This document shows positions 38,103-55,210 of a stretch of DNA of 55,296 bases, in pieces. The stretch spans positions 1 through 55,296 of the forward strand of contig JAHQWL010000022.1 of the NCBI GenBank assembly GCA_029856155.1. The letters are read 5' to 3'. How positions within the stretch are numbered: position 1 is the stretch's first letter; the number at the start of each line of letters is the position of its first letter. Below the pieces are notes generated by a model, which worked only from the letters and a program-made list of their open reading frames with translations, was not told the DNA's origin and searched no databases. The stretch comes from Promethearchaeia archaeon. Its GTDB lineage: Archaea; Asgardarchaeota; Lokiarchaeia; Sigyniarchaeales; SOKP01. The translations under genes and the position numbers were made by a program.

Positions 38103-39782
38103 TTAATGAGAAATTTTTAATTCCCTTCCAAATAGTATATTTTTAGCCTTTTCAAATGCTTCATTATAATCAAAAATTCTTTTTCCCTTAGTAATTGCAG
38201 CTTCTTTTAAAATAGAGGCCTCAACTTCTGATTTAAGCCTACCAACAGCTAATGCTCCTGTACCATTTATAGTCGGATAAATTTCTTTATTATTATCTTT
38301 AGGTTTTAATCCCTCAATTCCATAAGGTGGTACTAAATTTATGTCTATAACAATTTTGTTATTCAATTTGTTCAGGAGTTCTTTTGATAATACTTGAACT
38401 CCCACTGCTGCTAAGGACCATATAATATCGGCACTTTTTACTATTTCTAATTTCTTTTCATCATTAGGTGCAAAAACACCAATAATTTCATTTTCTCCAA
38501 CTTCCTCATTTAATTCTTTAACTAGCTGATTTATAAATTCTCCATTCGATTTTTCCCAAGTTTCTACTAAATACGTTTTACAATTTAATTTTGCCGCAAT
38601 TATGGCTGCAATTCTCCCGACTGGACCTGCTCCTAAAATAACTACTTTTTTGCCTTTTAAGTCATATAAATCATGTTCTCTAGCAAATTCCATTGTCTTC
38701 GCAACTACAGAAGAAGCGGTGGTGTGTGAACCACGAGGATCTATTATCACGGGGCATTCAAATGGGGGTACTAAAGACTCAATAACTTTTTTGGCAATTT
38801 TTTCTCCTTCTTTTACATTTGAACCACCAATAAAGAAAGTTGTAGGTGCTTTTGGTTTACGGGAAAAAATTGCATCTTGTACGAGTTTTGGTACTTGATC
38901 AGCAGTCATCTTGCTAATAGGTATAACTACATCAAAATTTGCATCATAAGCCATATTTATATCGAAAGGAGAGGCATTATCATCAGTATCAAAAAAATAA
39001 CATATTTTTTCTAATGACTCTTTCTTTTTGATTTTAATCGGTGATAATTCGAGTATACTTTTTCCAATTATATTTTTGATTGAATTAGAACCAGGATTAT
39101 TTATTATTTTTGCAGACCTTTTAATTTTAATTTCTTCAGTTTGGATGCCTAATTCTGCTGTTAAATTTCTTATTCCTTCAAAGTGTCTTGAATCACAGAT
39201 AAAGAATGCTGTTAACTTTTTTTCTATCATCTGTTTCGCAAATTGTAGAATTCCCATCATCATCCAAGCTTCTCGAACACTATATCTTATCTCATTTTCT
39301 TGAGAATCGTACTCTTGCTGTAAATATTCCTTCCATAAAACCATTCGATGAAATTCTAAATCATCTTTTAGAATTTTTTTCTCACTATTCTTTTTAGTCT
39401 CTTCAATTGATTTTATTAATTGTTTTACAAGCATTCTCTGGTCCTCTAAATTTGAGGAAAGATAATTTTCTGCGTTTTCTGAAATATCTACCATCTTATA
39501 TGGGACTTTATTTTCTCTAAATTTTGTTTCTAATGGATCTTCGTTGGATATTGTATCTTCCCATCGACTACCTTTCTCTTCGATTGCAAAATCAGGATTA
39601 TATTTACCTATAAGATTTTCAATTAAACTAAGATATTCCCTGGAAATTAGGTGCAAATTCCATACTAAGTCATGCTTTTTCTGGGCTGTGGGTTCAAACC
39701 ACCAATCTATTGGAAACTCACTTTCTATTAAGACCAATTTTAAACTTTTTTTTTTTAAAGGTTTTAATTCTAAAACTTCCAT
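38103..39782 (-). CDS. MtdA/MtdB-type NAD(P)-dependent methylene-H4MPT/H4F dehydrogenase with a ~250-aa N-terminal extra domain
   Basis: FDTD..ASPFDINMAYD, QDAIFSR, FIGG, PPF...DPRGSHTTA, GAGPVG, DINLVPPYGIEG, GALAVG.LK. Confidence 0.82.
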   Translation of the reverse strand: MEVLELKPLKKKSLKLVLIESEFPIDWWFEPTAQKKHDLVWNLHLISREYLSLIENLIGKYNPDFAIEEKGSRWEDTISNEDPLETKFRENKVPYKMVDISENAENYLSSNLEDQRMLVKQLIKSIEETKKNSEKKILKDDLEFHRMVLWKEYLQQEYDSQENEIRYSVREAWMMMGILQFAKQMIEKKLTAFFICDSRHFEGIRNLTAELGIQTEEIKIKRSAKIINNPGSNSIKNIIGKSILELSPIKIKKKESLEKICYFFDTDDNASPFDINMAYDANFDVVIPISKMTADQVPKLVQDAIFSRKPKAPTTFFIGGSNVKEGEKIAKKVIESLVPPFECPVIIDPRGSHTTASSVVAKTMEFAREHDLYDLKGKKVVILGAGPVGRIAAIIAAKLNCKTYLVETWEKSNGEFINQLVKELNEEVGENEIIGVFAPNDEKKLEIVKSADIIWSLAAVGVQVLSKELLNKLNNKIVIDINLVPPYGIEGLKPKDNNKEIYPTINGTGALAVGRLKSEVEASILKEAAITKGKRIFDYNEAFEKAKNILFGRELKISH

Positions 39783-40411
39783 TAATTATTCCCCTCTTGT
39801 TTTATAATTATATTTTGGATATTATGAAAATTATTCAATTCATAAACTATTACTTCTATATGAAGTTCTCTTAATTGTTTAGTTATTTCTGATAGAGTTC
39901 TTTCATGGAAAAAATGTATAAGAGACAAATCTTCATTTTCATGCAATCTTGCTAAATCTAGAATTTTTTTAACAATCCATTGTGGTCTTGTTTTTGTTTC
40001 TAAAATTTTATTATCATGATTGACTTCCTTTTTAAGAACATCAATCCAGGATTTTAAATTTAGCCCTTTAAAAGAGTTTTTATCATCTAAATTTCTATAT
40101 TCTGTTAATAACTCTCCAATTTGCTCTTCTTTCTTGTTTATCTCTTCAAAAAGGTATCCATATGCATACTCAGGCATATCTAATAAGTGAAATTCTAAAT
40201 CTAGAGCATTTAAAACAATTGAAAGATTAGAATTTTTAAAATCTTTAAAGTTTTCATTATTTATTTCAAGTGTAATAAAAGAAACTTCATTATTACTAAC
40301 CAATTCCTTTAATGTATCAATATCATTAAGTTTAGGGTTAATTCTAATTTTGTCTATTAAATATATAGTAATTTTTTTGTTGGTTATTGGTTTTAATTCT
40401 AACACTTCCAT
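39782..40411 (-). CDS. Hypothetical protein paralogous to the N-terminal domain of the downstream Mtd fusion
   Basis: Identical MEVLELKP start; D(M/I).E.A..YL, W...L..E and R..W....IL..A shared; TAATG overlap. Confidence 0.75.
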   Translation of the reverse strand: MEVLELKPITNKKITIYLIDKIRINPKLNDIDTLKELVSNNEVSFITLEINNENFKDFKNSNLSIVLNALDLEFHLLDMPEYAYGYLFEEINKKEEQIGELLTEYRNLDDKNSFKGLNLKSWIDVLKKEVNHDNKILETKTRPQWIVKKILDLARLHENEDLSLIHFFHERTLSEITKQLRELHIEVIVYELNNFHNIQNIIIKQEGNN

Positions 40412-40572
40412 TTTAATTCCCTTCCTTTTTTTTTTTTATTAATCTTTTTTAATATAACTATCATAACCTTACAAGATAAACCCGTTCTATCTTTCTGAGC
40501 TATGATGTTAATTCTAATTATATTATAATCTGATTAGAATTTAAATAGTTTGATAAGAAAAATTTTTATCCT

Positions 40573-40700
40573 TTTGACAAATTTAATTTTCAAAATCATT
40601 TTTTAGTGATTTTTATTTTCATTGAGAATATTGAATATTTCGACTTTCTCCAAAAATAACCTCTTTTTAAAAATTTAAATTGAAAATAAAATTTGTCAAA
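40573..40700. promoter_or_regulatory. Pair of 21-bp inverted repeats in the divergent mtd/hdr intergenic region
   Basis: TTTGACAAATTTAATTTTCAA (40573-40593) and TTGAAAATAAAATTTGTCAAA (40680-40700), 20/21 complementary. Confidence 0.55.
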
Positions 40701-41214
40701 TTTTTTGATAAATAAATAATTTCAACATTTTGACTACTTTTTGATCATAGGTAATAAGAATAGAATAGCTAATTTCAACTTATATGGTATTTTTTACTCA
40801 AAAAGGCGATTCTTTACAATAAATTTATAATTTTTCATTAGCAGATATAGACAAATCTGTCAAGTATAACATAACAAATCTGTAAAATTACCGAAATATT
40901 TTACATATTTCTATAATAATGTTAATTAATATTTATAAATCAAAAATAGAATTATCTAATTCTATCAATATTCTTTCTCTAATTGAATAATTCTCCTATC
41001 AATAAAACCGAAATATTCGTTTTTCTAGCATAAGAGTATTATATCCAATCAATGAAGTGACTGAAAAAGAAAATTCAGAGCAAGGATTTTTAAGTATGAA
41101 TTACCTTTTCTATCTTAGAAATAGATCATTTTGAAAATTTATTATAATTAAGAGGAAACGAAATTTTTAAACTCATTTAATTAATCCTGTTCAATAAAAA
41201 AAGGTGATATACGC

Positions 41215-41367
41215 ATTTTAGTAGAAAAGGGAGAGATAAAAGAATTTTGTAATAAATGTGGGGCAATGCTGGAAAATAATGACTATGTATACAGACGCAC
41301 AGCGCCTAATGTTAGAACATATGTCTGTTCTAAATGCGGGTATTTTGAATGGTATGTCGAGGAATAA
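41215..41367 (+). CDS. Small Zn-ribbon/rubredoxin-like protein leading the hdr operon (not in ORF track)
   Basis: EFCNKCGAML...YVCSKCGYFEWYVEE; GGTGA at 41203-41207; stop 6 bp before the next gene; start codon uncertain (ATT). Confidence 0.7.
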   Translation: MLVEKGEIKEFCNKCGAMLENNDYVYRRTAPNVRTYVCSKCGYFEWYVEE

Positions 41368-41373
41368 TTTTCG

Positions 41374-42624
41374 ATGTCATCTTATCTTAATCATGAAATT
41401 GAAACTGATAATTCAGACTGCCAAATTTTAGGCGAAAGCATCAAAAATGTTATTGCAACATCAAATTTTTGTTATGCTTGCAATCGATGTGTAAATGTGT
41501 GTCCACTTTCGCACTTAAACTTGTTTTTTCCACGAAAGTTAGTAGGGGATTTAATTTTTTCTTCGGTGGGAGAAGTGGTAAATAAACATAACATATGGAA
41601 TTGTCTTACTTGTGGTCAATGTACAGTTTATTGTCCAATGAGTCAAGAAAATGAGGGCATAAATATACCTAAATTAATTTTAGAATTGAGAAAGATTTCT
41701 AGAAATGATCAATTACAAAAGAATAGAATTATTCAGTGTGAAACACATAATCAAATTTTTCCACTAATCTGGAATATAATGGCAGATAATCTGATAAATC
41801 CAAATAAATTAGAATTTTTAAAGGAGAACAATTTAAAAACAACGGAATCTGGAGAGATTGCTTGCTTTATTGGATGTTTACCTTTAATGGAAGAAGTATT
41901 TTATAATTTAAATTTTAAATATACTAATATACCTATTACAATAATAGGTTTACTTAATGAAGTCGATATTGTGCCAGTGGTTTTAAATGAAAAATGCTGT
42001 GGACATGACGTTCTATGGGGTAAGGGAGATATTGAAACTTTTAAAAAATTTGCTGAATATAACACTCAGATTTATAGAAACGCCGGTGTAAAAACTGTTA
42101 TTGTTGGTTGTGCTGAAGGATATAGAACTTGGAAATTTGATTATCCAAAAATAATAGACGATTTTGATTTTAAAGTGATGCATTTTTCTGAATTTTTTCT
42201 TAAAGAAAAAATTCTCAAAAATGTAAGATTCCCTTATCTATCTGATATCAAGGTGACCTATCATGACTCTTGTCGGATGGGGCGGTTAGCGGATAAGTTA
42301 TATGATGTCCCAAGAGAATTAATTAAACAAATTCCAGGAGTAGAGTTAATTGAAATGGAAAATATTAAAGATGATGCTAACTGTTGTGGCGTTTCAGCAT
42401 TTTCAAATTGCAACGAATATACACATATTTTAAGGAGAAATCGTATTAATGAAGCTATTAATACTAATGCAGATTACTTATTAGTTCCTTGCCCTAAATG
42501 CTTAACACATTTTAATTGTTATATAAATGAGCTTTCTTTAAATAAAGAATATAATGAATTAAGAAATAAAATCGAAGTAATTGATTTAGCAAGTTTTATT
42601 GGAAAGTTGTTGATGCTTTTTTAA
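41374..42624 (+). CDS. HdrD/GlpC-like protein (2x4Fe-4S plus two CCG domains)
   Basis: CYACNRCVNVCP, CLTCGQCTVYCP, EKCCG, YHDSC, CCG, CPKC. Confidence 0.88.
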   Translation: MSSYLNHEIETDNSDCQILGESIKNVIATSNFCYACNRCVNVCPLSHLNLFFPRKLVGDLIFSSVGEVVNKHNIWNCLTCGQCTVYCPMSQENEGINIPKLILELRKISRNDQLQKNRIIQCETHNQIFPLIWNIMADNLINPNKLEFLKENNLKTTESGEIACFIGCLPLMEEVFYNLNFKYTNIPITIIGLLNEVDIVPVVLNEKCCGHDVLWGKGDIETFKKFAEYNTQIYRNAGVKTVIVGCAEGYRTWKFDYPKIIDDFDFKVMHFSEFFLKEKILKNVRFPYLSDIKVTYHDSCRMGRLADKLYDVPRELIKQIPGVELIEMENIKDDANCCGVSAFSNCNEYTHILRRNRINEAINTNADYLLVPCPKCLTHFNCYINELSLNKEYNELRNKIEVIDLASFIGKLLMLF

Positions 42625-42678
42625 ATTACTATTTAAAAAGAAGAATTTAAAGTTAAAGTTTTATTGGGGCTTTGACAA

Positions 42679-45600
42679 ATGTCAAGTTTATGGAGTAGTG
42701 TTTTGGTTATTGGAGGAGGAATCTCAGGGATACAAGCGTCCTTAGATCTAACCAAGTTAGGTTTTAAAGTATATTTAGTTGAAATTAAACCAACAATTGG
42801 GGGAACTATGGCCCAATTAGATAAGATATATCCTACTCTTGATTGTAGTTTATGCATCTTAGCTCCAAAAATGGTTGATGTATATAGAAATCCAAATATT
42901 GAATTATTTACTTATTCTTATGTTAAAAACATTAGAGGGACTCCTGGTGATTACACAATAACAATTATTAAAAAGCCAAGATATTTAAAAGAAGATCTCT
43001 GTAAAGGATGTGGGGATTGTGAAGAAATTTGTCCCGTTAGAGGAATTCCTAGTGAATTTGATACTCATTTAAAAACTCGAGGTGCTATATATATTCCTTT
43101 TCCATCTTCAGTACCCCCAATATATCTCATTGATGAATCAAAATGCATATATTTAAATTATAGAATATGTGGACTTTGCGCTAAAGCTTGTAATTCCGAA
43201 GCAATAGATTTTTTACAAAAACCAGAAGAAATTAAGGTGAAAGTAGGGGCTATTATTATTGCAACAGGATATAATCAAGAAATGCCAGAAGTTTATAATT
43301 CTTTTGCTGGTTCTTCCCCTAATGTTTTATCTAATATGCAATTTGAGCGTCTTTTATCAGCAAATGGGCCTACTGGTGGTAAAATTATAAGATTAGATGA
43401 TAAGAAACATCCTCATTCAATTGGTTTTATACAATGTGTAGGTTCTAGAAACGTTCATCATCCTGAATGTAAAAAATATTGTTCTGCCATATGTTGTATG
43501 AATTCGGCTAAAGAAGCAATAGTTGTCAAAGAACATGATCCAAGCATTGATTGTTATATTTTTAATACAGAAATCAGAGCAAAAGGTAAAAATTTTTATG
43601 AATTTATCGAAAAAAGTAAGATTGAATATGATGTCAAATATGTAAACGGTCATGTTTCATATATTAAAGAAAATTTAGATAACGGAAAATTAAAGTTATA
43701 TTTCGAAGATATTGATACAGGAAAAGTTGGAACTTTTGAAGTTGATATGGCCATATTAGCTAGTGCACTATCTCCCCCTCCTTCTTATTATAAGCTATTA
43801 AGGAAACTCAGTTTGGATTGTGATGATTTAGGTTACATTAGTGAAAGGGACATAATTTTACTTGAAAAAAAGAATATTTTCGTAACTGGCTATTCTAGAA
43901 AACCCAATGATATTCAAATGGCTGTTGCTGAAGGTTCTGCTTGTGCAGCTAAAATTAGTGAGAAATTGTCTCCTGTCAGATTTCAAAATATTATACAATT
44001 GAAATATCCTCCAGAAATACCAGTAAAACCGGAAGATGAGCCTCGTGTAGGTATTTTAGTTTGTCGGTGTGGTATTAATATCGGGGGTATCGTTAATGTT
44101 CCCGAAGTAGTAGATTATGTTTCTAAATTACCATATGTTGTCCATGTTGAAGAAAACATGTATTCTTGTAGTTCTGATTCACAAGAGCGGATTAAAGAAC
44201 TAATTATAAAATACAATCTTAATAGATTTATAGTTGCTTCTTGTACCCCGCGAACTCATGAACAACTTTTTAAAAATACTCTAAGAGAAGTAGGATTAAA
44301 TCCATTTTTATTTGAACTAGTAAACATAAGAAATCAAGATTCATGGGTCCATCAAAATGAACCTGAAAAGGCTACTAAAAAAGCATGTGATTTAATAAGA
44401 ATGCACTTAGCGAAGGTAATTAATTTAAAGCCATTAGAAACTATTAAAGAAAAAGTTGATAAATCATCTTTAATAATTGGTGGTGGAATTGCAGGAATAA
44501 CCACTGCACATAATTTGGCAAATCAAGGATTTGAAATATACCTTGTAGAGAAGAAATCCTCTCTTGGAGGTAACGCTCTTGAGTTTATTGATTTATACTA
44601 TATACCTATTACGAAAAATGAAATTTTACAGAAAATTTATGATTTGAAAAACAAATCTGGTATTCATATTTTATTAAATTCAGAAATAGATGATATTCAA
44701 GGTTATGTTGGAAATTATCAAGTAAAAGTTAAAAATGTTCATGATAGTTCAAAATATACAAAATTCAATGTAGGTACAATAATAGTATCTACGGGAACTA
44801 AACAAATAAAAACGAATAGATGGATGGATTTATCGGAAAAATATCCTAATCGTTTACTTACTCAAACAGAATTAACTGCATTAAATGATGAAGATGTCCC
44901 TGTATTTAAAGATGCTACAATAATATTGTGCGTAGATCAAAGAAGTGACGAATTTAATAGGGGAGATAATATAAAACCTTATTGCTCAAATATCTGTTGC
45001 GGTGTAGCATTAAAGAATATTGAAAAATTATTGAATATCAATCCTAAAGCACATATTCACATTTTATATAGAGAATTTCAATTCTCAGATTTAAATGCTG
45101 AAAATCTATGGCGAGGTCTTCGAAAGAAAGTAACTTATGAAAGATATCGTTCAATTGATGATATCAAAATTAGTGATGAAAATCATAACTTCCATATCTT
45201 ATATAATAATATTGGCGCACAAACAAATATAGAATATGATACTGATTTATTAATATTAGCTACTCCAAAAGTTCCTACTGATGATACAAAACAATTAGCA
45301 AAAATGTTAAAAGTATCAACAAATGTAGATGGCTTTTTCTTAGAAGCTGATGCAAAACTTAGACCAATTGATTTTGCTACAGAAGGAATTTTCCTTTGTG
45401 GAGGAGCTCATTGGCCAAAATGGATTGGTGAAAGTATAATTCAAGCTTATGCTGCTGCTGGAAGAGCAGCAATAATAATGGTTAAAGGGGAAATAGAAAC
45501 TGAATGCATTACTTCTTATGTAAATGAAGAAAAATGTATAGGATGCGGTAATTGTACTGAGATTTGCCCCTATAATGCAATTGAATTGGTTGAAATCTGT

Positions 45601-45792
45601 AAAGAGATCGGTTTGTATAATATATCTATGAAAAAGGCTCATATAATTAGTGCTGTTTGTAAGGGGTGCGGAGCTTGTGTTGTGGAATGTTCAGTGGGGG
45701 CTATTAACCAAAATCATTTTAGTAAATTTCAAATTAACAAAATGATTGATTTATTACCAAGCTTAGATATAATTGATTATGAAATTGTTTAA
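42679..45792 (+). CDS. hdrA: Large HdrA-like flavoprotein with two FAD-binding modules (Cys form)
   Basis: GGGISG, DCSLC, QCVGSR, YCSAICC, internal VCRCG/ASCTP/RNQDSWVH, second GGGIAG, YCSNICC, C-terminal ferredoxin. Confidence 0.9.
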   Translation: MSSLWSSVLVIGGGISGIQASLDLTKLGFKVYLVEIKPTIGGTMAQLDKIYPTLDCSLCILAPKMVDVYRNPNIELFTYSYVKNIRGTPGDYTITIIKKPRYLKEDLCKGCGDCEEICPVRGIPSEFDTHLKTRGAIYIPFPSSVPPIYLIDESKCIYLNYRICGLCAKACNSEAIDFLQKPEEIKVKVGAIIIATGYNQEMPEVYNSFAGSSPNVLSNMQFERLLSANGPTGGKIIRLDDKKHPHSIGFIQCVGSRNVHHPECKKYCSAICCMNSAKEAIVVKEHDPSIDCYIFNTEIRAKGKNFYEFIEKSKIEYDVKYVNGHVSYIKENLDNGKLKLYFEDIDTGKVGTFEVDMAILASALSPPPSYYKLLRKLSLDCDDLGYISERDIILLEKKNIFVTGYSRKPNDIQMAVAEGSACAAKISEKLSPVRFQNIIQLKYPPEIPVKPEDEPRVGILVCRCGINIGGIVNVPEVVDYVSKLPYVVHVEENMYSCSSDSQERIKELIIKYNLNRFIVASCTPRTHEQLFKNTLREVGLNPFLFELVNIRNQDSWVHQNEPEKATKKACDLIRMHLAKVINLKPLETIKEKVDKSSLIIGGGIAGITTAHNLANQGFEIYLVEKKSSLGGNALEFIDLYYIPITKNEILQKIYDLKNKSGIHILLNSEIDDIQGYVGNYQVKVKNVHDSSKYTKFNVGTIIVSTGTKQIKTNRWMDLSEKYPNRLLTQTELTALNDEDVPVFKDATIILCVDQRSDEFNRGDNIKPYCSNICCGVALKNIEKLLNINPKAHIHILYREFQFSDLNAENLWRGLRKKVTYERYRSIDDIKISDENHNFHILYNNIGAQTNIEYDTDLLILATPKVPTDDTKQLAKMLKVSTNVDGFFLEADAKLRPIDFATEGIFLCGGAHWPKWIGESIIQAYAAAGRAAIIMVKGEIETECITSYVNEEKCIGCGNCTEICPYNAIELVEICKEIGLYNISMKKAHIISAVCKGCGACVVECSVGAINQNHFSKFQINKMIDLLPSLDIIDYEIV

Positions 45793-46284
45793 TTGGGGGG
45801 ATTTATCCTGTTAAAAATAAAAAAAAAGCTAAAAAATGGATTTGAACCCAATATTTTAGTTTTTTGCTGTAATTGGTGTAGTTATGCTGGTGCAGACTTA
45901 GCAGGTGTTTCGAGGTTCCAATATCCCCCAAATATTAGAATTATTAGGGTCATGTGTTCTAGTAGGGTTGATCCTACATTCATTCTACGAGCTTTTAATA
46001 ATGGAATAGATGGAGTATTAATTATTGGATGCCATATGGGTGATTGTCATTATATGAAAGGATTTGAATACACTCAAGTTAGAATGGATCATTTAAAAAA
46101 ATTAATAAAATATATTGGAATTGAAGCAGATCGATTTGAACTGCACTCTATTTCTGCCAGTGAGGGAAAGCAATTTTCTGAATTAATTAAAAATTTTACA
46201 AAGACAATTAAAGAATTTGGAGAATTAAGAATCCCTAAAAAACCTGGTATATTTGAATTCGAATATAATTGTAAAAAGAATTAA
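45793..46284 (+). CDS. mvhD: MvhD/FlpD [2Fe-2S] subunit (Cys form)
   Basis: FCCNWCSYAGADLAG, RVMCSSR, GCHMGDCHY. Confidence 0.93.
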   Translation: MGGFILLKIKKKLKNGFEPNILVFCCNWCSYAGADLAGVSRFQYPPNIRIIRVMCSSRVDPTFILRAFNNGIDGVLIIGCHMGDCHYMKGFEYTQVRMDHLKKLIKYIGIEADRFELHSISASEGKQFSELIKNFTKTIKEFGELRIPKKPGIFEFEYNCKKN

Positions 46285-46299
46285 TAAAAAGGAATTATA

Positions 46300-47430
46300 A
46301 TGACCGAATTAGCTTATAAGAAACTTTTACAAAACGAAGTAAAAACATTTGAAGATCTTAAAAATGAAATAATTGATGGTAATAAATGCTGTGCATGTGC
46401 TGCTTGCATAGCATATTGCGAAAGTCAAGGTTTTGATGTTATTGAAATGAAGGGAGATAATCCTGAGTTTAAATCAGAAAAAAGTGTTGAAAATTGTACT
46501 AAATGTGGTGTCTGTTATTATATTTGTCCTCAAACTAAAGTATTATTAAAACAATTAAATGAAATTTATGGTATTGAAGATAATATTGGAAAAGTTGTTA
46601 AAATTCTTGCTGCTAAAACAACAAATACTGGATTAGAAAAAGTTGGACAAGATGGAGGGGTTGTTTCAGCAATTCTAACATATTTATTTGAAAAACATAA
46701 AATTGATGCCGCTATTGTTTCGGAATTTGACCAAAATTTTAAGCCCGTTCCAAAAATTATATTTGATAAAGAGGATTTATTTAAATCCGCAGGTACACGT
46801 TATTCTATTTCTCCTCAAATATTCCCTTTAAAAAATTTATACACCATACCGAAAAAAATTCTTATCAAGAAGGAGATATTTGATATTGATGAGCTAAGAA
46901 TAGCATTTATTGGAACTCCTTGTCAATGTAGGGCTGTTAATAAAATGAAATTTTTACATGTTAAACCAGCTCATGTCATTAAATATATTATAGGCCTTTT
47001 CTGTTTTGAGAATTTTATTTATGACAAATTATATGATATTTTAAAAAGAGAAATAAAAGTTGATCCTACTAATATCAAGAAAACTTGGATAAAAAAGAAT
47101 TTCTTTATCCAAACCAAAGATAATAAAGAATTCGAAATCGATATAAGAACTCTTAATCCCGCAGTAAGAAATAATTGCCATGAATGTGATGAATTCACGG
47201 GAAGATTTACAGATATTAGTGTTGGGGCATCCGGAGCACCAGAAGGATATTCTATGATACTAATTAGAACTGATAATGGTAAGAAGGTAATAAATAATAT
47301 GCTTTCAAAAGGGATAATTGAGCAATTTATTGTTCCATCTAACAGAACTATTGAGTGGAAGAATAAAAAATTGGAGTGGTATAATAAATTAATTTCCTTA
47401 AAGATCCGAAATCAAACTAATATGAACTAA
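46300..47430 (+). CDS. FrhB/FdhB-family F420-interacting subunit with N-terminal ferredoxin
   Basis: CCACAAC, CTKCGVC, GQDGGVVS, AGTRY, GTPCQ, GLFCFENF, CHEC...DISVG. Confidence 0.88.
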   Translation: MTELAYKKLLQNEVKTFEDLKNEIIDGNKCCACAACIAYCESQGFDVIEMKGDNPEFKSEKSVENCTKCGVCYYICPQTKVLLKQLNEIYGIEDNIGKVVKILAAKTTNTGLEKVGQDGGVVSAILTYLFEKHKIDAAIVSEFDQNFKPVPKIIFDKEDLFKSAGTRYSISPQIFPLKNLYTIPKKILIKKEIFDIDELRIAFIGTPCQCRAVNKMKFLHVKPAHVIKYIIGLFCFENFIYDKLYDILKREIKVDPTNIKKTWIKKNFFIQTKDNKEFEIDIRTLNPAVRNNCHECDEFTGRFTDISVGASGAPEGYSMILIRTDNGKKVINNMLSKGIIEQFIVPSNRTIEWKNKKLEWYNKLISLKIRNQTNMN

Positions 47431-47465
47431 AGATATAAATTCATCTTAATTATTATTTTTATTTT

Positions 47466-47536
47466 TCTGAAATCCCATGCAATGGGTAAGTTTCCTCTTA
47501 ACTAACATTTTTTTAAGAGGATCATTCTTTTTCAGA
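47466..47536 (-). promoter_or_regulatory. Candidate SECIS element in the 3' UTR of Sec-HdrA
   Basis: mRNA UCUGAAA-AAGA-AUGA-UCCUCUUAA-(AAAAAUGUUAG)-UUAAGAGGA-AACUUA-CCCAU-UGC-AUGGG-A-UUUCAGA, starting right after the stop codon. Confidence 0.6.
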
Positions 47537-49573
47537 TTATGTTGTAAAAGGAGCTAACGCTTCGATCTTTTTCCAAATAAGTTCAATGGATTCAATATAT
47601 TCTTCCTTATATTCAAGTTCAGTACTACAAATTCCTTTTATCTCTTCAGTAATTTGCTTATCTCTATAATATTTAAGATCAATTGCTCTGGCGGGGCATG
47701 ATGATACACAAACTCCACAACCTTTACATTTTAAATCGTCTACTTCAGCTATATTCCTTCCATTAACTTTTATTGCTTTATAATTGCAGAGTTTTTCACA
47801 TCTATGACATCCCATACATAGATTTTCATTTATTTCAGCTATGATTAATTCTTGAGTTATTTTATCTTTAGAAAGTAAAGTAGATGCTTTACTTGCTGCA
47901 GCTAATGCAGTTGATACGGTGTAAGGGATATTTTTAGGTCCCGCAGCACAACCACATATATAAATACCCAAATTATTTGTCTCTTGAGGTTTTAGGCATC
48001 CATGAACTTCAGTTAAAAACCCATTTATATCTTTAGCAATACCTAAAGTCTCAACAATTTGTGTTATTTTCTTAGAAGGAACCATACCAGTAGATAATAC
48101 AACTAAATCGGTATTCATTGTTATAAAATCATTTGTTAATGTCGAAGAAGCTGTAACTTTTATTTTTTTTAAGTCAGGAACTTCTCGAACATTCCCTACT
48201 TTTCCTCGAATCATTATTATCCCCGCTTCTCTCGCTTTTCTATAATATTCTTCATTCCCTTTATCCCATGTCCGCATGTCTATATAAAAGATAACAATTT
48301 CAATCTCAGGATATTCTTGTTTTAACAATTGAGCATTTTTGAGTGCAACATTACAACATACTCCTGAGCAATAGGGATTTCCGTGTAAGGATCTTGAACC
48401 TACGCATTGAATCATTGCGACTGATTTTGGGATTTTTCCATCAGAAATTCTACATACATGGCCCCCAGTTGGTCCCACTGGACTTAACATACGTTCTAAT
48501 TCTATTTGGGTAATTACATCAGGATAAATACCATATTTATATTCATTATTTTTCAAAACTGGATATTCATCCCAGCCCGTGGCGATAATTACTGCTCCAA
48601 CTTTTATATTTATATATTCTGAGGTCTGTTCTAAATCAATAGCGTCTGCAGGACAAATTCTTTGACAACTTTTGCAATCAATACAAACACTCTTATCTAT
48701 TAAAGCAATTTTAGGAACTGCTTGGGGAAAAGGTATGTAAATTGCTCCTCGTTCCCCCATACCTCTGTCAAATTCGTTAGGTACTTTTATTGGACATTTA
48801 GTTGTACATAATCCACAACCCGTACACTTACTTTCATTAATATATCGAGCTTTTTTGTGTATTTTAACATTATAATTTCCAGGGTTGCCACTAAATTTAC
48901 TTACCTCACTATAAGTAAGTAATGTTATATTTGGATGTTTTGACGTACTAACCATAATAGGTGCTAAAACTCATATAGCGCAATCGTCTGTAGGATAAAT
49001 TCGATCTAATTGTGCCATTTTTCCCCCAATAGTGGCTTCTTTTTCAACTAAATAGACGGGAATTCCTTGATTGGCTAAATCTAATGCTGCATTCATCCCT
49101 GCAATACCAGCGCCGATAATTAATACCGATTTTTCTACTGATAGTTTTTTAAAAGGTATTATTTCTAATTCTCTAGCACGATTTATTCCTGCTTGCACTA
49201 ACCTTATAGCTTTTTCAGTAGTTTTTCTCTTATTTCCCGAATAAGTAAATGAGCAATGTTCACGAAGATTAACCATTTGGAAGTAATATGGGTTTAATCC
49301 TGCTTCAACTAAGACTAATCGATACGTGGATTCATGAATTTTAGGTGTGCAAGCTGCAACAACCACCCGATTTAAGTCTAAATCTAAAATATCGTTTTTG
49401 ATAATTTTTTGTCCTGGATCGCTACAAGTAAAATCATTTACTCTAGAAACAATAACGTTTGGAAGGGCTTCAACATAATCTCTAATAAGATCACAATCGA
49501 TAGAAGCACTAATATTAACTCCTCATCTACAGATATACACTCCAATTCTTACCATGGTCTGTATCTCAGACAT
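47537..49573 (-). CDS. hdrA: Heterodisulfide reductase subunit A, selenoprotein with two in-frame UGA (codons 17 and 201), 678 aa
   Basis: One frame from ATG 49573 (GGTGA SD): GVYICR-TGA-GVNI (49523-49525) and DDCAI-TGA-VLAP (48971-48973); both align with Cys in the neighbouring HdrA (CRCGINI, DCSLCILAP). Confidence 0.9.
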
Positions 49574-50040
49574 TTAATTCACCTATTAAAATATCACCAA
49601 CTATTAATAATGACATACTAAATTCATAAAATTGAAAGAACTGAAAATTTGAAAATGAATAAAATGCATTTTATTTTGTGCTATTCAGATTAAATGATGA
49701 TTTTAAGTAAATTTAAAAAATATGATAAGAGGAATTTTAATTATTTGACAAAATTTTTAGTCTTTTTTTGACTTAATGTACGAATCTGAACTTTGCATAA
49801 TTATTTTCTTACAGAGAGTTTATCACTTTCATGATAGATATTAGGACTTTTCTAACACCTTTCTGACTATATCCGAATACATAAAATGGGAAAAAGATCA
49901 TACTTATATACTTTGACAATAATATTTATCATAGAGATCATAAAGTTAATCAAAATAGTCATAGTTATTTTTGAATTTAAAATTAGTTTTTCTATTAAAA
50001 GTATATAATATAATTTATTTGAAAAAAAGGGAATTGAATT

Positions 50041-52590
50041 ATGGATATATACTCGATATTATCTCATCCGTTTAGAAGAAAAATCTTGCTCCTTTTAGAA
50101 AAAGAGGGTTATATTCCCTATACAGATTTAATGGAAAAATTGGGTTTAGATACAACAGGACAGTTAAATTTCCATCTCAAAAAAATTGGTACATTAATCA
50201 ATAAAGATAAAAAATCATACTTTCTTACGGAAGATGGTAAACGTGTATTAAAGATCTTAAATCTTAACAAAAGAATTTTATCAGGAGAAAATATTGATGA
50301 ATATTTAGATTCTCAGGGAAGTGAAATAAGCCGAATTGGAGTAATAATTTGTAATTGCAATACAGAAATTTCAAATGTAATTAATATAATTGCACTTGAA
50401 AAATATGTACATAAGCTAAGAAAGGTTGTGTCTATAAAAATCTTCGAAAATTTATGCCAACAAAAAAACTTCGATAAAATTACCCATTGGGTAAAAGATA
50501 ATTTTTTAAACAAGATTGTAATAGCAGCATGCTCTCCAAAAACTCATCAACATCTTTTTAAACGAATTTTTGATGGTGTTATTGAACACGTTAACATAGA
50601 AATTGCAAACATTAGAGAACAATGTTGTTGGGTACATCAATTCGGAATAAATGAAATCGATCCCTCTCTTCCATTAGAAAAGGCAGAATTATTAATTGAA
50701 GCAGCAATTGAACGCGTTAGTCTTCAAAAGAAAGTAAAAGTAAAGAGAGTTGAAATTGAAAAGAGTGTTGCAATTTTAGGGGGCGGAATAGCGGGTATAA
50801 CACTTGCATTAAATTTAGCTCGAGCAGGAATTAAAGTATATGTTATTGAAAAATCACCAACTTTGGGAGGTAAAGTAGCTAGATGGGATCGAATTCATAA
50901 TATGGGCGATTGTTCTATATGTTTCATTTCAGAATTAATAGGTGAGTTGGTGAATGAAAAAAATGTAAAAATACTTACTAATACTGAAATAGAAAGTGTT
51001 TCAGGAGAAGTTGGAAATTTTACTCTTAACTTGATTAAAAAACCGCGATATGTAGATACAAAAAAATGTACTGGTTGTAAACAATGCATAGAAGTATGCA
51101 GTATTGAAAAACAAAATCAGTATGAATTTGGATTAAATAGTAGAAAAATTATTTATATCCCATTTATTCATTCTTTTCCCTATGTTCCTTTAATTGATGA
51201 ATCAGATATCAAAAATTGTCTTAACTGTAGAATCTGTGAGCGTGCTTGCGTGAATAAAGCAATAGATTTGACACAAAAACCAGAAAAAATTGAAATTAAA
51301 GTAGGTACTAAAGTTATCGCTATTGGTTCTGATCTTTTTTCAGATTTAGACGAATATGGTTATAACCCACAAAAAGATATAATTACATCATCAGAGTTTG
51401 AAAGAATGTTATCTTCTGATGGATTCACAGAAGGTAAAATAGTAAAAATTTCTGATAAAACACCTCCAAAGACAATTTCAATTATTCAAAATGCTGGATC
51501 ACCTGATCATCAAGATAAACTTCAAGATATCCTTGCGTTAAAATATTTAAATTATATTGAAGTTAAAAATCCTGAATGTAAAGTCAATATTTTCTACGAT
51601 TTAAGTAAGATAAAAAAACCCGATGACTTTTTGCTAAGATCCACGGATTCTAGAATACACTACATTAATAAAATAAAACTAATTGAAAAAAACGGTCAAA
51701 AAATAGTAAAAGGTAATTCAAAAGAATATCCAAGTGATTTAGTTATATTAAATCAAACACTGGTACCAAATAAAGATTTAAAAGCATTTCGAAAAACAAT
51801 GGATTTCACATTGGATGATTATGGTTTTATGAGTGAAGAAACATTGGCATCTGGAATATATGGGGTTGGAACTATATTTGGTCCATTAGATTATAATTCT
51901 ACCATCTCAACAGCTAATAATACTGCTATTAAAATCATTTCACTACTCTCTAATGATTATTTGATAGCGGAGTTTAGTGGTATTGAAATCGATGATAACA
52001 AGTGTGGTTTATGCGGATTATGTTCTAAAATTTGTCCTTATAATGCCATTACAATCGAATCAGAAAAAGTAAGTATAGATAAATTTAAATGCAAAGGTTG
52101 TGGTACATGCGCTAGTATATGCCCTACTAATGCGATAGATTTAAATATAGATAATTCTGAGAAGATTTTAAAATCAATTGAAATTTTTTCGAAATTTAGA
52201 AAAAAACCTAAAATTATTGCCTTTTGTTGTCGTTCGTGTGGATATGCTGCTGCTGATGATGCTGGACTTAAAAAGATCTCATATCATCCAAATATTTTTA
52301 TTTTAAGTGTCCCTTGCACAGGTCGTATAGATACCAATTTCATAATTAAATCATTTGAGTTAGGTTTTGATGGAGTAATGATTATCGGTTGTAGAAAAAA
52401 TGCATGTCGATATATTGATGGAGTAGAAAAAGTAGAAAAAAAAATAACGATCTTAAAGAATATTATCCCTACAAAATACCGTGAACGAATAATTCTTAAA
52501 CATATGAATGCTGTTGAAGGTAATAAGTTTGCTGAAGTTGCTAATAAATTTTATAAAAAATTACTAGAGGAGGTTAAATTTGAAGCGTAA
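50041..52590 (+). CDS. Winged-helix (ArsR-like) - HdrA-like - MvhD triple fusion
   Basis: LSHPFRRKILLLL...GQLNFHLKKI...YFLTEDG; ICNC, AACSP, REQCCWVH, GGGIAG, DCSIC, two ferredoxin pairs; FCCRSC, PCTGR, GCRKNACRY. Confidence 0.88.
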   Translation: MDIYSILSHPFRRKILLLLEKEGYIPYTDLMEKLGLDTTGQLNFHLKKIGTLINKDKKSYFLTEDGKRVLKILNLNKRILSGENIDEYLDSQGSEISRIGVIICNCNTEISNVINIIALEKYVHKLRKVVSIKIFENLCQQKNFDKITHWVKDNFLNKIVIAACSPKTHQHLFKRIFDGVIEHVNIEIANIREQCCWVHQFGINEIDPSLPLEKAELLIEAAIERVSLQKKVKVKRVEIEKSVAILGGGIAGITLALNLARAGIKVYVIEKSPTLGGKVARWDRIHNMGDCSICFISELIGELVNEKNVKILTNTEIESVSGEVGNFTLNLIKKPRYVDTKKCTGCKQCIEVCSIEKQNQYEFGLNSRKIIYIPFIHSFPYVPLIDESDIKNCLNCRICERACVNKAIDLTQKPEKIEIKVGTKVIAIGSDLFSDLDEYGYNPQKDIITSSEFERMLSSDGFTEGKIVKISDKTPPKTISIIQNAGSPDHQDKLQDILALKYLNYIEVKNPECKVNIFYDLSKIKKPDDFLLRSTDSRIHYINKIKLIEKNGQKIVKGNSKEYPSDLVILNQTLVPNKDLKAFRKTMDFTLDDYGFMSEETLASGIYGVGTIFGPLDYNSTISTANNTAIKIISLLSNDYLIAEFSGIEIDDNKCGLCGLCSKICPYNAITIESEKVSIDKFKCKGCGTCASICPTNAIDLNIDNSEKILKSIEIFSKFRKKPKIIAFCCRSCGYAAADDAGLKKISYHPNIFILSVPCTGRIDTNFIIKSFELGFDGVMIIGCRKNACRYIDGVEKVEKKITILKNIIPTKYRERIILKHMNAVEGNKFAEVANKFYKKLLEEVKFEA

Positions 52591-53338
52591 ATTTGTGATA
52601 ATATCTTTAACTTCTTGTAGTGGATGCATTTCTTCTCTTATATCGTTAGATATTTTTCCACAATTCCTTGAAAGGACTAAAGTAATTTATTTTCCGTTTA
52701 TTTCCGAAGAAAAAGAAATTGAAGATTGCGATATTTGTTTAGTCGAAGGATGTGTTTCTGAAGAAAATCAAATCCCAATCCTTCGAAAAATCAGAAAACA
52801 AGCAAAAAAAATATATGCATTAGGAACTTGTGCTTGTTTTGGAGGAATTTTAAGCCTATCCGATAAAAAAATGGCAGAACCAATTTCAAGTTATATTGAA
52901 ATTGATGGTATTATCCCCGGTTGTCCACCACCTATGAAACTTTTTGGTAATTGTCTAATTCGATTGGTCGAAAATAAAGAAATAGAACTCTCTGAAAAAA
53001 ATATGTGTGGTAGCTGCCCATTAAGAGGGAACATGGAAATAAATTCTAATATAAATATCTCAAAAATTACACCAAATCCAGAAGATATTAAACTTGATGA
53101 GGAAAACTCTGAATGTTTTTTAGCAAGGGGTATTTTATGTTTAGGACCCATAACACGAGATGGGTGTGAACATAAGTGCATTAAGATGGGGCTTCCTTGT
53201 GAAGGATGTATAGGATCAGTATCAAAAGATTTTACTTCTAATATTGTTAACTATTTGAGTTTGATAAATTTATCTCAAGAACTCAAAAACTACACTGGTA
53301 TTTTTTATCGATTCTCGAAACCAAAATTGGAGTGGTGA
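52580..53338 (+). CDS. mvhG: Group 3 [NiFe]-hydrogenase small subunit (MvhG-like)
   Basis: SCSGC, VEG, GTCACFGG, IPGCPP, distal CGSCP...CFL...CLGPIT..GC...C...PCEGC. Confidence 0.85.
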   Translation: MKRKFVIISLTSCSGCISSLISLDIFPQFLERTKVIYFPFISEEKEIEDCDICLVEGCVSEENQIPILRKIRKQAKKIYALGTCACFGGILSLSDKKMAEPISSYIEIDGIIPGCPPPMKLFGNCLIRLVENKEIELSEKNMCGSCPLRGNMEINSNINISKITPNPEDIKLDEENSECFLARGILCLGPITRDGCEHKCIKMGLPCEGCIGSVSKDFTSNIVNYLSLINLSQELKNYTGIFYRFSKPKLEW

Positions 53339-54648
53339 TAAAACTGTTAAAAGTAATTGATGTTTGTAAACGTGTTGAAGGGCATGGTGAAGTAAAAATT
53401 TTAATCCAAAATGATGAAATTTCGTTAGTAAATTTTGAATTTAATATTTATAGAGGTTTTGAAAATTTCTTAATAGGAAAGAAATTATTAGATATACCAA
53501 AAATAGTTCCTAGGATATGTGGATTATGTTATGCTTCTCAGGCAATCGCTAGTTGTAAAGCAATTGAGGATATATATAATATCAAGGTTTCAGAACAAGC
53601 AAAACTTTTAAGGCGGATTTTAATGACTGGAGAATTAATCAAATCCCATTCTATGAATTTCTTTTTCCAAGCTTTACCAGATCTATTAAATATTTTTAAT
53701 ATTACTCAAAAAACTACAACTGCTTATGATTTAATTAATTATGACCCTCAATTAACTTCAAATATATATGAACTAATTAAAATTGGCAATGAAATTAATA
53801 ATTTGTTTGGGGGTAGATCAGTTCATTTAATTTCAATCATTCCTGGAGGAATTATTTATTCTCCTTCTAAAAAAATTATTTCAATAGCTAAAAAAAGATT
53901 TCAAAATGCTTTAATCAGTTTAGAATGGATTATAGAAAAATTTATTGAGTTATTTTCTCATCAATTACCACCTAAAGAATTTGATCCTCCAAATCTTATC
54001 TATCTTGGTCTCTCGAATTTAATGAATTATAATCGATATTCAGGTAGTTTATCATTCAAAGAAGCTAATAAAAATATGATAGAATTTGAAAAGTATAATT
54101 ATTCTTCTTATTTTGGAAAGGAGCCTGAGTTACGTGGAATTGATTTTTACTTTGATAATATAAAAAATGTCATAGTAGGGCCTTTATCCAGATACAATAT
54201 CAACGAGAATTATGGTACAGATGAAATTCAAACTTATCTTGAATATTTTGATAAACCATGGAAAAATAGTATTCTATTTGCTAATTTTATTAGATTATTG
54301 GAAATGTATATGGAAAGTATCCAGAGTATACAAATTTTAGATGATCATAATTTAAATATTAAACAAGAACTCCCTTCTATGAATTCCGTAAAAAGGGTTG
54401 ATGGAATCGGGGTTATTGAAGCCCCCAGAGGGACACTTTTACATCATTATTACGTTAATAATCATAATTCTCTTGATCGAATAAAATTATTTGTTGCTAC
54501 TGAGTTTAATATTCCAATAATAAATGAAATGATTACGAATTATGCAAAAGAATTATTTGAAAGAAAGGGAGATATTAATTTAGTGAAAAATAATGTTCAG
54601 AGGATAATTAGAGCATTCGATCCATGTATTTCATGTGCAACTCATTAA
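53332..54648 (+). CDS. mvhA: Group 3 [NiFe]-hydrogenase large subunit (MvhA-like) with no C-terminal extension
   Basis: RVEGHG, RGFE, RICGLC, EAPRGTLLHHY, RAFDPCISCATH-TAA. Confidence 0.88.
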   Translation: MVIKLLKVIDVCKRVEGHGEVKILIQNDEISLVNFEFNIYRGFENFLIGKKLLDIPKIVPRICGLCYASQAIASCKAIEDIYNIKVSEQAKLLRRILMTGELIKSHSMNFFFQALPDLLNIFNITQKTTTAYDLINYDPQLTSNIYELIKIGNEINNLFGGRSVHLISIIPGGIIYSPSKKIISIAKKRFQNALISLEWIIEKFIELFSHQLPPKEFDPPNLIYLGLSNLMNYNRYSGSLSFKEANKNMIEFEKYNYSSYFGKEPELRGIDFYFDNIKNVIVGPLSRYNINENYGTDEIQTYLEYFDKPWKNSILFANFIRLLEMYMESIQSIQILDDHNLNIKQELPSMNSVKRVDGIGVIEAPRGTLLHHYYVNNHNSLDRIKLFVATEFNIPIINEMITNYAKELFERKGDINLVKNNVQRIIRAFDPCISCATH

Positions 54649-54844: not shown

Positions 54845-55210
54845 ATATCTGAAAATGAAAAGACTATTTTATATGTACAAACCTCACATGACCCAGAACG
54901 GCAATATTCTCCATTAATATTAGCTCAAACAGCAAAAGCTATGGATATTAAAGCTATTGTATACTATTTGGGCAGTGCATTAAGAATTTTAAAACCGGGA
55001 GAAGCTGAAAAAATTAAGTTAGGTGGTTTTCCAAGTGTAAAGGAAATGATTGATAAAACACTAAAAATGGGGATCGAAATCCTAGTGTGTGAAGCGTCTA
55101 AACGAATGCTAGGTTGGGAAAAAGTGGATCTAATACCGGGAGTTAAAATTGTTGGAGCTGCGACTTTAAATGATTTAGTATTAGAAGTAGATGCGACGCA
55201 ATGGTTTTAA
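54845..55210 (+). CDS. DsrE/DsrF-like family protein; proposed ATA start
   Basis: TILYVQTSHDPERQYSPLILAQTAKAMD...ILVCEAS...IVGAATL; frame open from ATA 54845, GGTGA 6 nt upstream. Confidence 0.78.
   Translation: MSENEKTILYVQTSHDPERQYSPLILAQTAKAMDIKAIVYYLGSALRILKPGEAEKIKLGGFPSVKEMIDKTLKMGIEILVCEASKRMLGWEKVDLIPGVKIVGAATLNDLVLEVDATQWF

Follow-up and report, generated by a model that had tools for sequence, protein, structure and literature searches.

Can an enzyme that handles H2 control the transcription of its own genes? The question is raised by a locus on contig JAHQWL010000022.1 of a Promethearchaeia archaeon, where the HdrA-MvhD subunit of a [NiFe] hydrogenase begins with what is, by its profile matches and structural model, an ArsR-like winged helix-turn-helix (wHTH) domain. 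We analyzed a window of 55,296 nt of this contig, to which all coordinates refer. We found a conserved palindrome in front of the operon that encodes the fusion. This element is new here, while enzyme-regulator fusions as such are known, and it gives the idea of DNA binding independent in silico support. We put at about even the chance that the HdrA-MvhD subunit works as a trigger enzyme: a dimer of its wHTH would bind this palindrome and so repress the operon. The operon and the domains of the fusion protein are as follows:

50041-52590, + strand: wHTH-HdrA-MvhD fusion gene, an open reading frame (ORF) of 849 amino acids (aa) with an ATG start
50041-50265, + strand: N-terminal wHTH, residues 1-75, DUF7347/ArsR-like (Pfam PF24038)
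50266-50331, + strand: connecting segment, residues 76-97, with the NKRILSGE.I motif; conserved, and of low confidence in the model
50332-52212, + strand: HdrA-like body, with a Cys domain, a flavin adenine dinucleotide (FAD) Rossmann domain (GGGIAG), and inserted and C-terminal 2x[4Fe-4S] ferredoxin domains
52213-52590, + strand: MvhD domain, residues 725-849, an in-frame C-terminal fusion (Pfam FlpD, PF02662)
52580-53338, + strand: mvhG-like gene, [NiFe] hydrogenase small subunit, 252 aa, TTG start, overlapping the fusion gene by 11 nt
53332-54648, + strand: mvhA-like gene, [NiFe] hydrogenase large subunit, 438 aa, GTG start, with a 7-nt overlap with mvhG

The coordinates of these ORFs, their overlapping stop and start codons and the absence of hdrB and hdrC were as given in the initial annotation of this DNA. 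We found no hdrB or hdrC after mvhA in the window, nor in the operon of two further loci (L001 and L002); the ORF that follows mvhA encodes a DsrE-like protein (54941-55210; Pfam).

The N-terminal domain was identified in several ways, and the results uphold the earlier assignment of an ArsR-like winged helix. Residues 2-71 match DUF7347 (PF24038) with an E-value of 3.2e-10 and 40.5 bits, against a cut-off of 27.6 (Pfam), and there is an additional weak HTH_24 match at the N-terminus of the fusion. In a six-frame scan of the whole genome, the fused DUF7347 domain scored 45.5 bits. Residues 1-95, folded alone with 40 homologues, gave an AlphaFold 2 (AF2) model with a predicted local distance difference test score (pLDDT) of 90.4, consisting of helices at residues 3-8, 10-22, 27-34, 39-52 and 64-80 and strands at 53-56 and 59-62. 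The Foldseek neighbours of this model were YodB (5hs9; template modelling (TM) score 0.70), CadC, BigR, NolR with DNA, and 1y0u, so that the nearest solved folds are all DNA-binding regulators of the ArsR/HxlR/MarR type. These matches had TM scores of 0.6-0.7 and a probability of 1.0, with E-values of just 2e-3 to 3e-2; such modest E-values are usual for a domain of ~90 residues. A profile search of the PDB sequences with the wHTH returned a sole match, the A. fulgidus ArsR-like protein 1Y0U, at an E-value of 4.5e-6.

The part of the domain that would contact DNA is well preserved. The recognition helix reads TTGQLNFHLKK and the wing KDKKSYFL. Among the fused forms, R12, G40, N43, H45, L46, Y60, L62 and G66 are invariant, as are T39, K55 and K58. 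The invariant residues are those conserved in free-standing DUF7347 proteins, in the recognition helix and the wing, and their retention in both fused and free forms indicates that the DNA-reading face is intact. The wHTH is also the most conserved domain of the protein, with 74% mean pairwise identity compared to 58-72% for the other domains. It contains no Cys, and its only His residues are H9 and H45. A wHTH without Cys cannot be a thiol switch by itself, and because there are just these two His residues and no Cys, metal sites of the ArsR/SmtB alpha3N or alpha5 type look to be absent.

We modeled two copies of the wHTH together. The pair scored 0.45, compared to 0.01 for the best control, with an interface formed by alpha1 and alpha5; since ArsR dimers have already been solved, this pass may reflect likeness to them and not independent evidence. 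Among proteins of solved structure, the mark used for the dimer score was attained by 20 of the 30 that are pairs of one chain and by 1 of the 23 that are single chains. The dimer runs agreed in at least 92% of contacts, and the pLDDT of the partner was at least 85. The connecting segment (residues 76-97; 68% mean pairwise identity) extends the dimerization helix and then becomes a low-confidence linker, with R78, L80, G82 and E83 invariant or nearly so. Residues 68-89 lie in the modeled dimer interface, and residues 75-95 have a pLDDT below 50 in the full-length model.

The fusion is widespread in Asgard archaea. Using residues 1-130 as a query, we recovered 166 protein clusters, of which the best 120 are almost all ~830-855 aa long; all of these 120 have PF24038, and all but three truncated ones (474-679 aa) have PF02662. 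The clusters come from metagenome-assembled genomes (MAGs) labelled Promethearchaeota/Lokiarchaeota, Hel-, Thor-, Hermod-, Hod- and Odinarchaeota. We also surveyed 301 genomes of the phylum, including the genome that contains the window. A contiguous match to the wHTH and the HdrA N-terminus was present in 50 of the 68 genomes of the window's family and in six further families, where the identity of the N-terminal region of the fusion (residues 1-135) falls to 34-44%. A scan of contigs gave 130 loci that encode a relative, and the loci kept include single-chromosome MAGs and Helarchaeota type MAGs. The start codon and a ribosome binding site (RBS) of GGAGG/GGGA type are at the same position in 32 loci, which indicates that the wHTH is translated as part of the fusion protein.

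The hydrogenase genes travel with the fusion. In all 22 loci with downstream DNA, mvhG and then mvhA follow the fusion gene, at +2.5 and +3.3 kb, and five genomes of family f1 that lack the fusion also lack an orthologous mvhA. The constant linkage and the joint loss show that the three genes behave as one unit. The order of wHTH-HdrA-MvhD, mvhG and mvhA, which the initial annotation proposed to look for in other Asgard genomes, is conserved across Asgard families, with the fusion itself in at least seven, and is not confined to this assembly. One of the five fusion-less f1 genomes (G228; C30:64610-64837) retains just a 76-aa mvhA remnant with a stop codon.

The evidence that bears most directly on regulation lies in front of the operon. 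When we aligned the upstream DNA of genus-level relatives, a single block survived amid diverged intergenic sequence. It reads GATCAyATTTATATAyTT-TGACAATAATATTTATCA-TAGAGATCAT, and its core is an 18-bp inverted repeat, TGAYAA-N6-TTRTCA. The sites in the window are:

49914-49931, strand not applicable: proximal operator candidate O1, TGACAATAATATTTATCA, matching TGAYAA-N6-TTRTCA, 110 nt 5' of the ATG
49904-49910, + strand: TATA-like box TTATATA, ending 3 nt before O1; TTTATATA in relatives
49746-49763, strand not applicable: distal, weaker site O2, TGACAAAATTTTTAGTCT, 168 nt from O1; 14.1 bits with the position weight matrix (PWM) described below

O1 is the only match to the pattern in the 55-kb window, where 0.05 are expected. 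The palindrome recurs 5' of the fusion gene in other genera and families whose promoters cannot be aligned with that of the window. At up to 600 nt upstream, 36 of 52 loci had the 16-bp core (51 sites in all), compared to an average of 0.29 and a maximum of 2 in 200 dinucleotide shuffles; the full 18-mer was found at 30 upstream sites, compared to 0.04 in the shuffles. Twenty loci fetched after the motif had been defined served as a hold-out. Among these, sites were present at -96 in family f21, at -44 to -62 in f14 and at -63 to -243 in f3/f4, and f9 had a perfect site, GACAACATTTATTGTC, at -142 within GC-rich DNA. A second set of 69 loci partly overlaps the first; 34 of these carry the exact 18-mer upstream, and it was absent from all of the coding regions. 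The spacing of 168-169 nt between O1 and O2 recurs in six loci (L006, L009, L010, L011, L016 and L019).

The position of the palindrome is consistent with a repressor site. The proximal site in family f1 is preceded by a TATA box (TTTATATA or TTTAAATA) at a distance of 3-4 nt. Genus relatives have GATCAyATTTATATAyTT-TGACAA, and the box in other genera is TTTATAAA/TTTAAATA. With the TATA box 3-4 nt before it, the palindrome fills the space between TATA and the expected start site, which is the classical position for an archaeal repressor. The TATA-like box at 49904-49910 is presumably a functional promoter.

In some same-genus genomes, the 1.3 kb upstream of the fusion gene hold the operator pair and, after it, an FrhB-like gene that is read in the same direction as the fusion gene (L006, L008, L010-L013, L015 and L019). 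Its product is ~30-34% identical to that of 46300-47430 in the window. Where this gene precedes the fusion gene, the sites sit 5' of frhB, which is where the promoter of the operon would be. This arrangement suggests a frhB-hdrA-mvhD-mvhG-mvhA operon, with a possible F420-type or other flavin partner.

The element is not a global one. There were 2-8 copies of the exact pattern in each genome checked, and two genomes (G028 and G096) have no intergenic copy other than that in front of the fusion gene. In the window's genome the exact 18-mer count, 5, equals the expectation from composition, 5.2, which argues against a global role. We built a PWM from the sites upstream of fusion genes and scanned the 4.1-Mb genome with a threshold of 14 bits. 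There were 14 hits above 14 bits, of which five are in the window (49914, 49746, 40575, 40681 and 5248). O1 was the top hit of the genome at 24.7 bits. The sites at 40575 and 40681, neither of them in the training set, ranked third and fifth, and together they mark a likely second target:

40575-40592, strand not applicable: operator-like site TGACAAATTTAATTTTCA, 164 nt 5' of divergent p209; PWM 20.3 bits
40681-40698, strand not applicable: operator-like site TGAAAATAAAATTTGTCA, which shares its intergenic region with 40575; PWM 17.8 bits
38103-40411, - strand: p209/p559 operon (p209, 39782-40411; p559, 38103-39782), likely a second target operon

The p209 protein is Asgard-specific and has no Pfam family, and among named atlas clusters the nearest to it is TraB/GumN, at 0.84, a lead only. 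The p559 protein has Mpt_N and 2-Hacid_dh_C domains and is Mtd-like (Pfam). A pair of sites with a spacing of 106-109 nt at p209 is also present in genomes G132, G144 and G099. Orthologues of p209/p559 are directly divergent from the fusion gene in L002, L021-L035 (p209 only in L027), L051 and L052, an arrangement that holds for most other genera and for f21 and f4. By comparison with these other genomes, the sites at 40575 and 40681 can be assigned to the divergent p209/Mtd-like operon. The initial annotation had named the hdrD-hdrA-mvhD-frhB operon as an obvious target, which is not conserved: there is no site within 1.5 kb of the hdrD orthologues in 18 of 21 hdrD loci. The three hdrD loci with sites have the G000-type arrangement (two are shown on the contig of the fusion), and the sites there adjoin p209. 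A likely history is that one intergenic region served both operons and that this genus gained the hdr cluster at 41374-49573 between them, with sites kept on each side.

The p209/p559 operon co-occurs with the fusion/hydrogenase operon. We found no p209 orthologue in 8 of the 10 genomes of the family that lack the fusion, which leaves little power to a phyletic test for sites without the factor. In L002 (5271-7664), p559 is split into two genes of 245 and 332 aa. A further inverted repeat, GACAAATCTGTC, with similar half-sites and a shorter spacer, is present at 40840-40865, within the intergenic region 40412-41373.

We rejected a wider regulon. The PWM hit at 5248 is inside a gene, and the other intergenic hits adjoin unrelated genes (a proteasome subunit, a beta-lactamase-like/GT87 pair, an iron-type alcohol dehydrogenase (Fe-ADH) and a deacetylase); all of these look like chance. 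We also rejected p209 as the binder, since it has no DNA-binding signature and the operator persists without an adjacent p209 in f9, f14, L001 and L050. No other DNA-binding gene is conserved in the neighbourhood of the loci examined, where the fused wHTH is the only one. The regulon thus seems to comprise one or two operons, as expected of a regulator dedicated to its own locus.

We turn to the enzyme that carries the domain. Residues 98-841 align end to end with NCBIfam HdrA2, at 586 bits, below the equivalog cut-off of 1100 bits. There is an FAD/NAD (nicotinamide adenine dinucleotide) Rossmann domain at ~242-284, with GGGIAG at 247-252, and there are ferredoxin motifs (Pfam). The invariant Cys residues are C104, C106, C139 and C164 in the N-terminal domain and C343/346/349/353, C393/396/399/403, C655/658/661/665 and C684/687/690/694 in the ferredoxin domains. 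The HdrA body also aligns end to end with solved HdrA (8RVU and 5ODC), with E-values of 1e-105 to 1e-111. The MvhD domain matches PF02662 over residues 725-841 (E-value 1.3e-33; profile positions 1-119 of 123) and 5odc_D and 8rvu_F at E-values of ~1e-23. Its five Cys residues (C730, C733, C759, C784 and C789) are invariant, in keeping with the intact Cys ligands first noted.

The initial description of an HdrA-like body holds except for one cluster. The four-Cys motif of solved HdrA, CVGSRD...YCSxxCC, which belongs to the latter half of its thioredoxin-reductase-like domain, is absent from the HdrA body of the fusion (residues ~480-520; 51400-51960) and from 33 of 33 Loki-type homologues. In a phmmer alignment with 8rvu_a (E-value 6.7e-111), IIQNAGSPDHQ...DKLQDIL stands opposite HCVGSRDEQ...YCSRVCC. 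In work on 5ODC, this motif reportedly holds a [4Fe-4S] cluster on the path from the bifurcating FAD to HdrC, adjacent to the FAD. Its loss is in keeping with an operon that lacks hdrBC and suggests that the enzyme of the Loki-type clade is not a canonical bifurcating MvhADG-HdrABC; hdr-like genes are present elsewhere in the window's genome. Three distant fused forms (P0155, P0180 and P0206) retain the four-Cys motif, with the full HdrA cluster set, which indicates that the wHTH fusion is older than the loss of the cluster and is not bound to a crippled enzyme.

The mvhG product matches Pfam Oxidored_q6 (E-value 3.5e-20) and NCBIfam VhuG (E-value 3.7e-37), and the mvhA product matches Pfam NiFeSe_Hases and NCBIfam VhuA/ShyA (E-value ~1e-51). 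Both Cys pairs of MvhA are kept (RICGLC at 61-66 and DPCISC at 430-435), and RICGLCYASQ has Q in place of the H of 7t2r_D. The best solved relatives of MvhA (match E-value 9e-51) are 7t2r_D, aligned to residue 450 of 475, and 5odc_F, aligned to residue 448 of 473. MvhA stops at DPCISCATH (His438), and as 5odc_F and 7t2r_D run on for ~25 aa, it has no C-terminal extension. This suggests that the usual endopeptidase step is missing from the maturation of MvhA. By its family and structure matches, the hydrogenase is closest to group 3 enzymes (VhuA, ShyA and MvhA). The genome holds at least 15 HdrA paralogues, and the wHTH is on the fusion only. There is only one further [NiFe] large subunit in the genome, a distant one, and the fusion operon encodes the only Mvh-type hydrogenase, which argues that it is the Mvh-type enzyme of the organism and not an extra sensor copy. 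The complex, first proposed to be a one-component hydrogenase regulator, is probably not a dedicated sensor, since it is the only Mvh-type hydrogenase of the genome and distant fused forms keep the full HdrA clusters.

How might such an enzyme act at the operator? An enzyme and a DNA-binding domain lie in one polypeptide, with a candidate operator on its own promoter, which in silico is the arrangement of a trigger enzyme. We infer that this wHTH, and not another factor, binds the operator and that binding represses. The wHTH would dimerize through alpha1/alpha5, helped by the dimeric HdrA core, and the dimer would bind TGAYAA-N6-TTRTCA between the TATA box and the expected transcription start. 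In family f1, the dimer would also bind at the divergent p209/Mtd-like operon and repress both. A bound dimer would block recruitment of RNA polymerase, leading to repression. Because the wHTH lacks Cys and appears to lack a metal site, a signal would have to originate in the enzyme body. Candidate signals are the reduction state of the FAD and Fe-S clusters, set by H2 through MvhA, MvhG and MvhD or by ferredoxin, and assembly with MvhAG. Either could shift the two wHTHs into or out of a DNA-binding geometry. It is conceivable, and we propose it only tentatively, that the wHTH leaves the operator in response to the redox state of the flavin/Fe-S chain, to which H2 or ferredoxin would supply electrons. 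Equally speculative is the view that the whole [NiFe] hydrogenase-HdrA complex is a one-component H2/ferredoxin redox sensor-repressor of the hydrogenase and Mtd-like promoters.

The palindrome could also be read by another protein, which is the chief rival to the trigger-enzyme reading. It is possible, if rather doubtful, that the wHTH is a structural or docking module and that a different factor, most plausibly a free DUF7347/ArsR paralogue, reads the palindrome; the wHTH might then hold the dimer together, or it might recruit an FrhB-like subunit, p209/p559 or a ferredoxin. Several observations favour such a role or otherwise weigh against a trigger enzyme. The wHTH of BamF, an MvhD-like adaptor in a solved HdrA-type complex, contacts a protein, BamI, and not DNA (bioRxiv 10.64898/2026.04.10.717634). 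Four other DUF7347 proteins in the window's genome (two of the free paralogues are at C59:2752-2958 and C97:14534-14740) score above the Pfam cut-off, with TGxLNYHLK helices; free DUF7347 paralogues share the TGxLN(Y/F)HLK helix, and one of them could be the true binder. The conservation of the linker (68% identity) suggests packing against protein. Family f18 keeps the fusion without a full palindrome, showing just degenerate sites and half-sites. Genome G099 has p209 with two sites 108 nt apart (C120; L095, 1213-1338), and our search of it found no fusion and no orthologous mvhA; this contig may be a binning error, given that the p209 of G099 is 76% identical to that of the window compared to ~42% in its own genus. 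There was no clear covariation of the recognition helix with the operator across the loci compared: f18 has T39S/Q41K or N43T with degenerate sites, and f9 and f14 have Q41L with the palindrome kept. The full-length AF2 model (pLDDT 68; predicted TM score (pTM) 0.47) is not good enough to fix the position of the wHTH against the body or to tell whether the two wHTHs of an HdrA dimer reach one operator. Other observations weigh against a structural role. The conserved residues are the family-wide recognition helix and wing, including K55 and K58, and there is no new conserved surface. The operator is specific to the operon, the usual sign of a locally encoded regulator, and no other regulator gene is conserved there. 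Finally, the range over which operator and fusion co-occur extends from f1 to f9 and f14, where N-terminal identities are just 34-44%.

Even if the wHTH binds the operator, the signal might be subunit dosage or assembly, with unassembled HdrA-MvhD repressing until it is titrated by MvhAG, a simple negative autoregulation that would keep the subunits in stoichiometric balance. We regard this as unlikely, although several features favour it: the operator coincides in part with the core promoter of the operon, the wHTH has neither Cys nor a ligand site of its own, and the fusion gene is first in the operon, with mvhG and mvhA appearing to be translationally coupled to it. Some fused forms have the four-Cys cluster and others lack it, which points to a regulatory role independent of one redox centre. 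The dosage explanation leaves the sites at the divergent p209/Mtd-like operon unaccounted for, and the combination of a redox flavoenzyme with a DNA-binding domain has a redox-switched precedent in PutA; the data do not separate dosage from redox switching. It is exceedingly improbable that the fusion is an artefact, with a mis-called start or a mistake in sequencing or assembly having attached a separate small regulator gene to hdrA. We considered this solely because the window's genome is in 104 contigs with an estimated contamination of 5.7%. The frame is continuous without a stop, the fusion is found in independent assemblies, among them single-chromosome MAGs, and the start and RBS are conserved.

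The trigger-enzyme reading concerns a locus with further redox genes nearby, of which the divergent neighbour is the closest:

47537-49573, - strand: divergent HdrA paralogue, candidate selenoprotein, with two in-frame TGA codons

This gene (Sec-hdrA, for selenocysteine) starts at 49573 and not, as first annotated, at 49574. Its product is 36% identical to the HdrA body of the fusion, and O2 lies 173 nt upstream of its start. Sec-hdrA is the divergent neighbour of the fusion gene only in g1/g6 loci (L003-5, L007, L009, L014, L016 and L017). Other HdrA paralogues of the genome have 2-4 in-frame TGA codons (on C98, C11, C21 and C3). These codons are consistent with the presence of selenocysteine in several HdrA proteins of this genome.

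Just downstream of the p209/p559 operon, a gene at 36356-37792 (- strand) encodes an FrhB/FdhB-like flavoprotein of 478 aa whose C-terminal ~150 residues match the TrmB winged helix (PF01978), with an E-value of 1e-5 and 25.7 bits against a cut-off of 25.6. It is a second redox enzyme fused to a domain of DNA-binding type, ~12 kb from the first. The gene is not kept beside p559 in L002.

The Mvh-type hydrogenase is seen as the central H2-evolving or H2-consuming enzyme in Asgard syntrophy and in hydrogen-based models of eukaryogenesis, and we know of nothing on how Asgard archaea regulate it. If the wHTH reads the operator, this would be the first direct link from a hydrogenase/HdrA redox chain to transcription, the first defined cis-regulatory element and regulon of Asgard archaea, and a simple, portable H2/redox-responsive switch. 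If the complex also acts as the redox sensor-repressor considered above, an H2-handling enzyme would directly set its own level and, through the Mtd-like operon of a Wood-Ljungdahl branch, one-carbon (C1) metabolism, in an arrangement that may date to early Asgard archaea. The hypothesis is reduced to a 95-aa domain and an 18-bp site with clear half-sites and is directly testable. Regulation aside, the clade-wide loss of the HdrA cluster and an operon without hdrBC call into question the routine annotation of such loci as bifurcating MvhADG-HdrABC. In cultured MK-D1, MvhADG-HdrABC is the only hydrogenase and has been treated simply as such (Imachi et al. 2020, PMC7015854). The full text of the literature that we searched contained no description of a wHTH-HdrA fusion or of DUF7347, and surveys of HdrA diversity and of archaeal fusions did not mention the fusion, in agreement with the first impression that the architecture is undescribed.

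Compared to known systems, the order of modules is that of MvhADG-HdrABC, the group 3c complex of methanogens (5ODC and 8RVU), with HdrA, MvhD, MvhG and MvhA. Fusion of HdrA to MvhD is in itself already known, as HdrA2/type Ia (PMC12054007). The protein described here differs in its additional N-terminal wHTH, in an operon without hdrB/C and in scores below the NCBIfam equivalog cut-offs, and the enzyme of the window lacks the four-Cys cluster, the hdrBC partnership and the MvhA C-terminal extension. With ArsR/SmtB regulators and free DUF7347 proteins, the wHTH shares the common fold, the modeled alpha1/alpha5 mode of dimerization and the TGxLN(Y/F)HLK helix, but here it is fused to a redox enzyme of 750 aa and has no Cys. 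SurR of Pyrococcus furiosus, a free ArsR-like wHTH that controls hydrogenase operons, is a redox switch with a CxxC motif, whereas the fused wHTH has no Cys and no CxxC. Regulatory hydrogenases (HoxBC-HoxJ-HoxA and HupUV), which belong to group 2b, sense H2 and signal via a histidine kinase, and their large subunit is also without the C-terminal extension. In contrast, the enzyme described here has group 3 matches, and no kinase, response-regulator or HoxA-type gene flanks the operon in L001 or L002, the loci examined.

The closest functional parallels appear to be enzymes with a DNA-binding domain of their own. In the bacterial protein PutA, which combines a ribbon-helix-helix domain with a proline dehydrogenase flavin, the reduction state of the flavin decides between DNA-bound repressor and active enzyme. 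PutA and trigger enzymes such as BirA have an enzyme and a DNA-binding domain in one chain and an operator on their own promoter, as proposed here. The difference from PutA is that here an ArsR-like wHTH sits on a multi-cluster HdrA wired to a hydrogenase, and that DNA binding and switching are predictions. RbkR, an archaeal riboflavin kinase with an N-terminal wHTH, was found by comparative genomics and has palindromic operators 5' of the genes of its own pathway, which it regulates (PMC5397151). RbkR is a kinase dependent on cytidine triphosphate (CTP), with a logic of flavin mononucleotide (FMN) and CTP and with no Fe-S/redox chain or hydrogenase partner. By analogy, the fusion would work most like PutA and would also resemble RbkR, while being a member of neither family.

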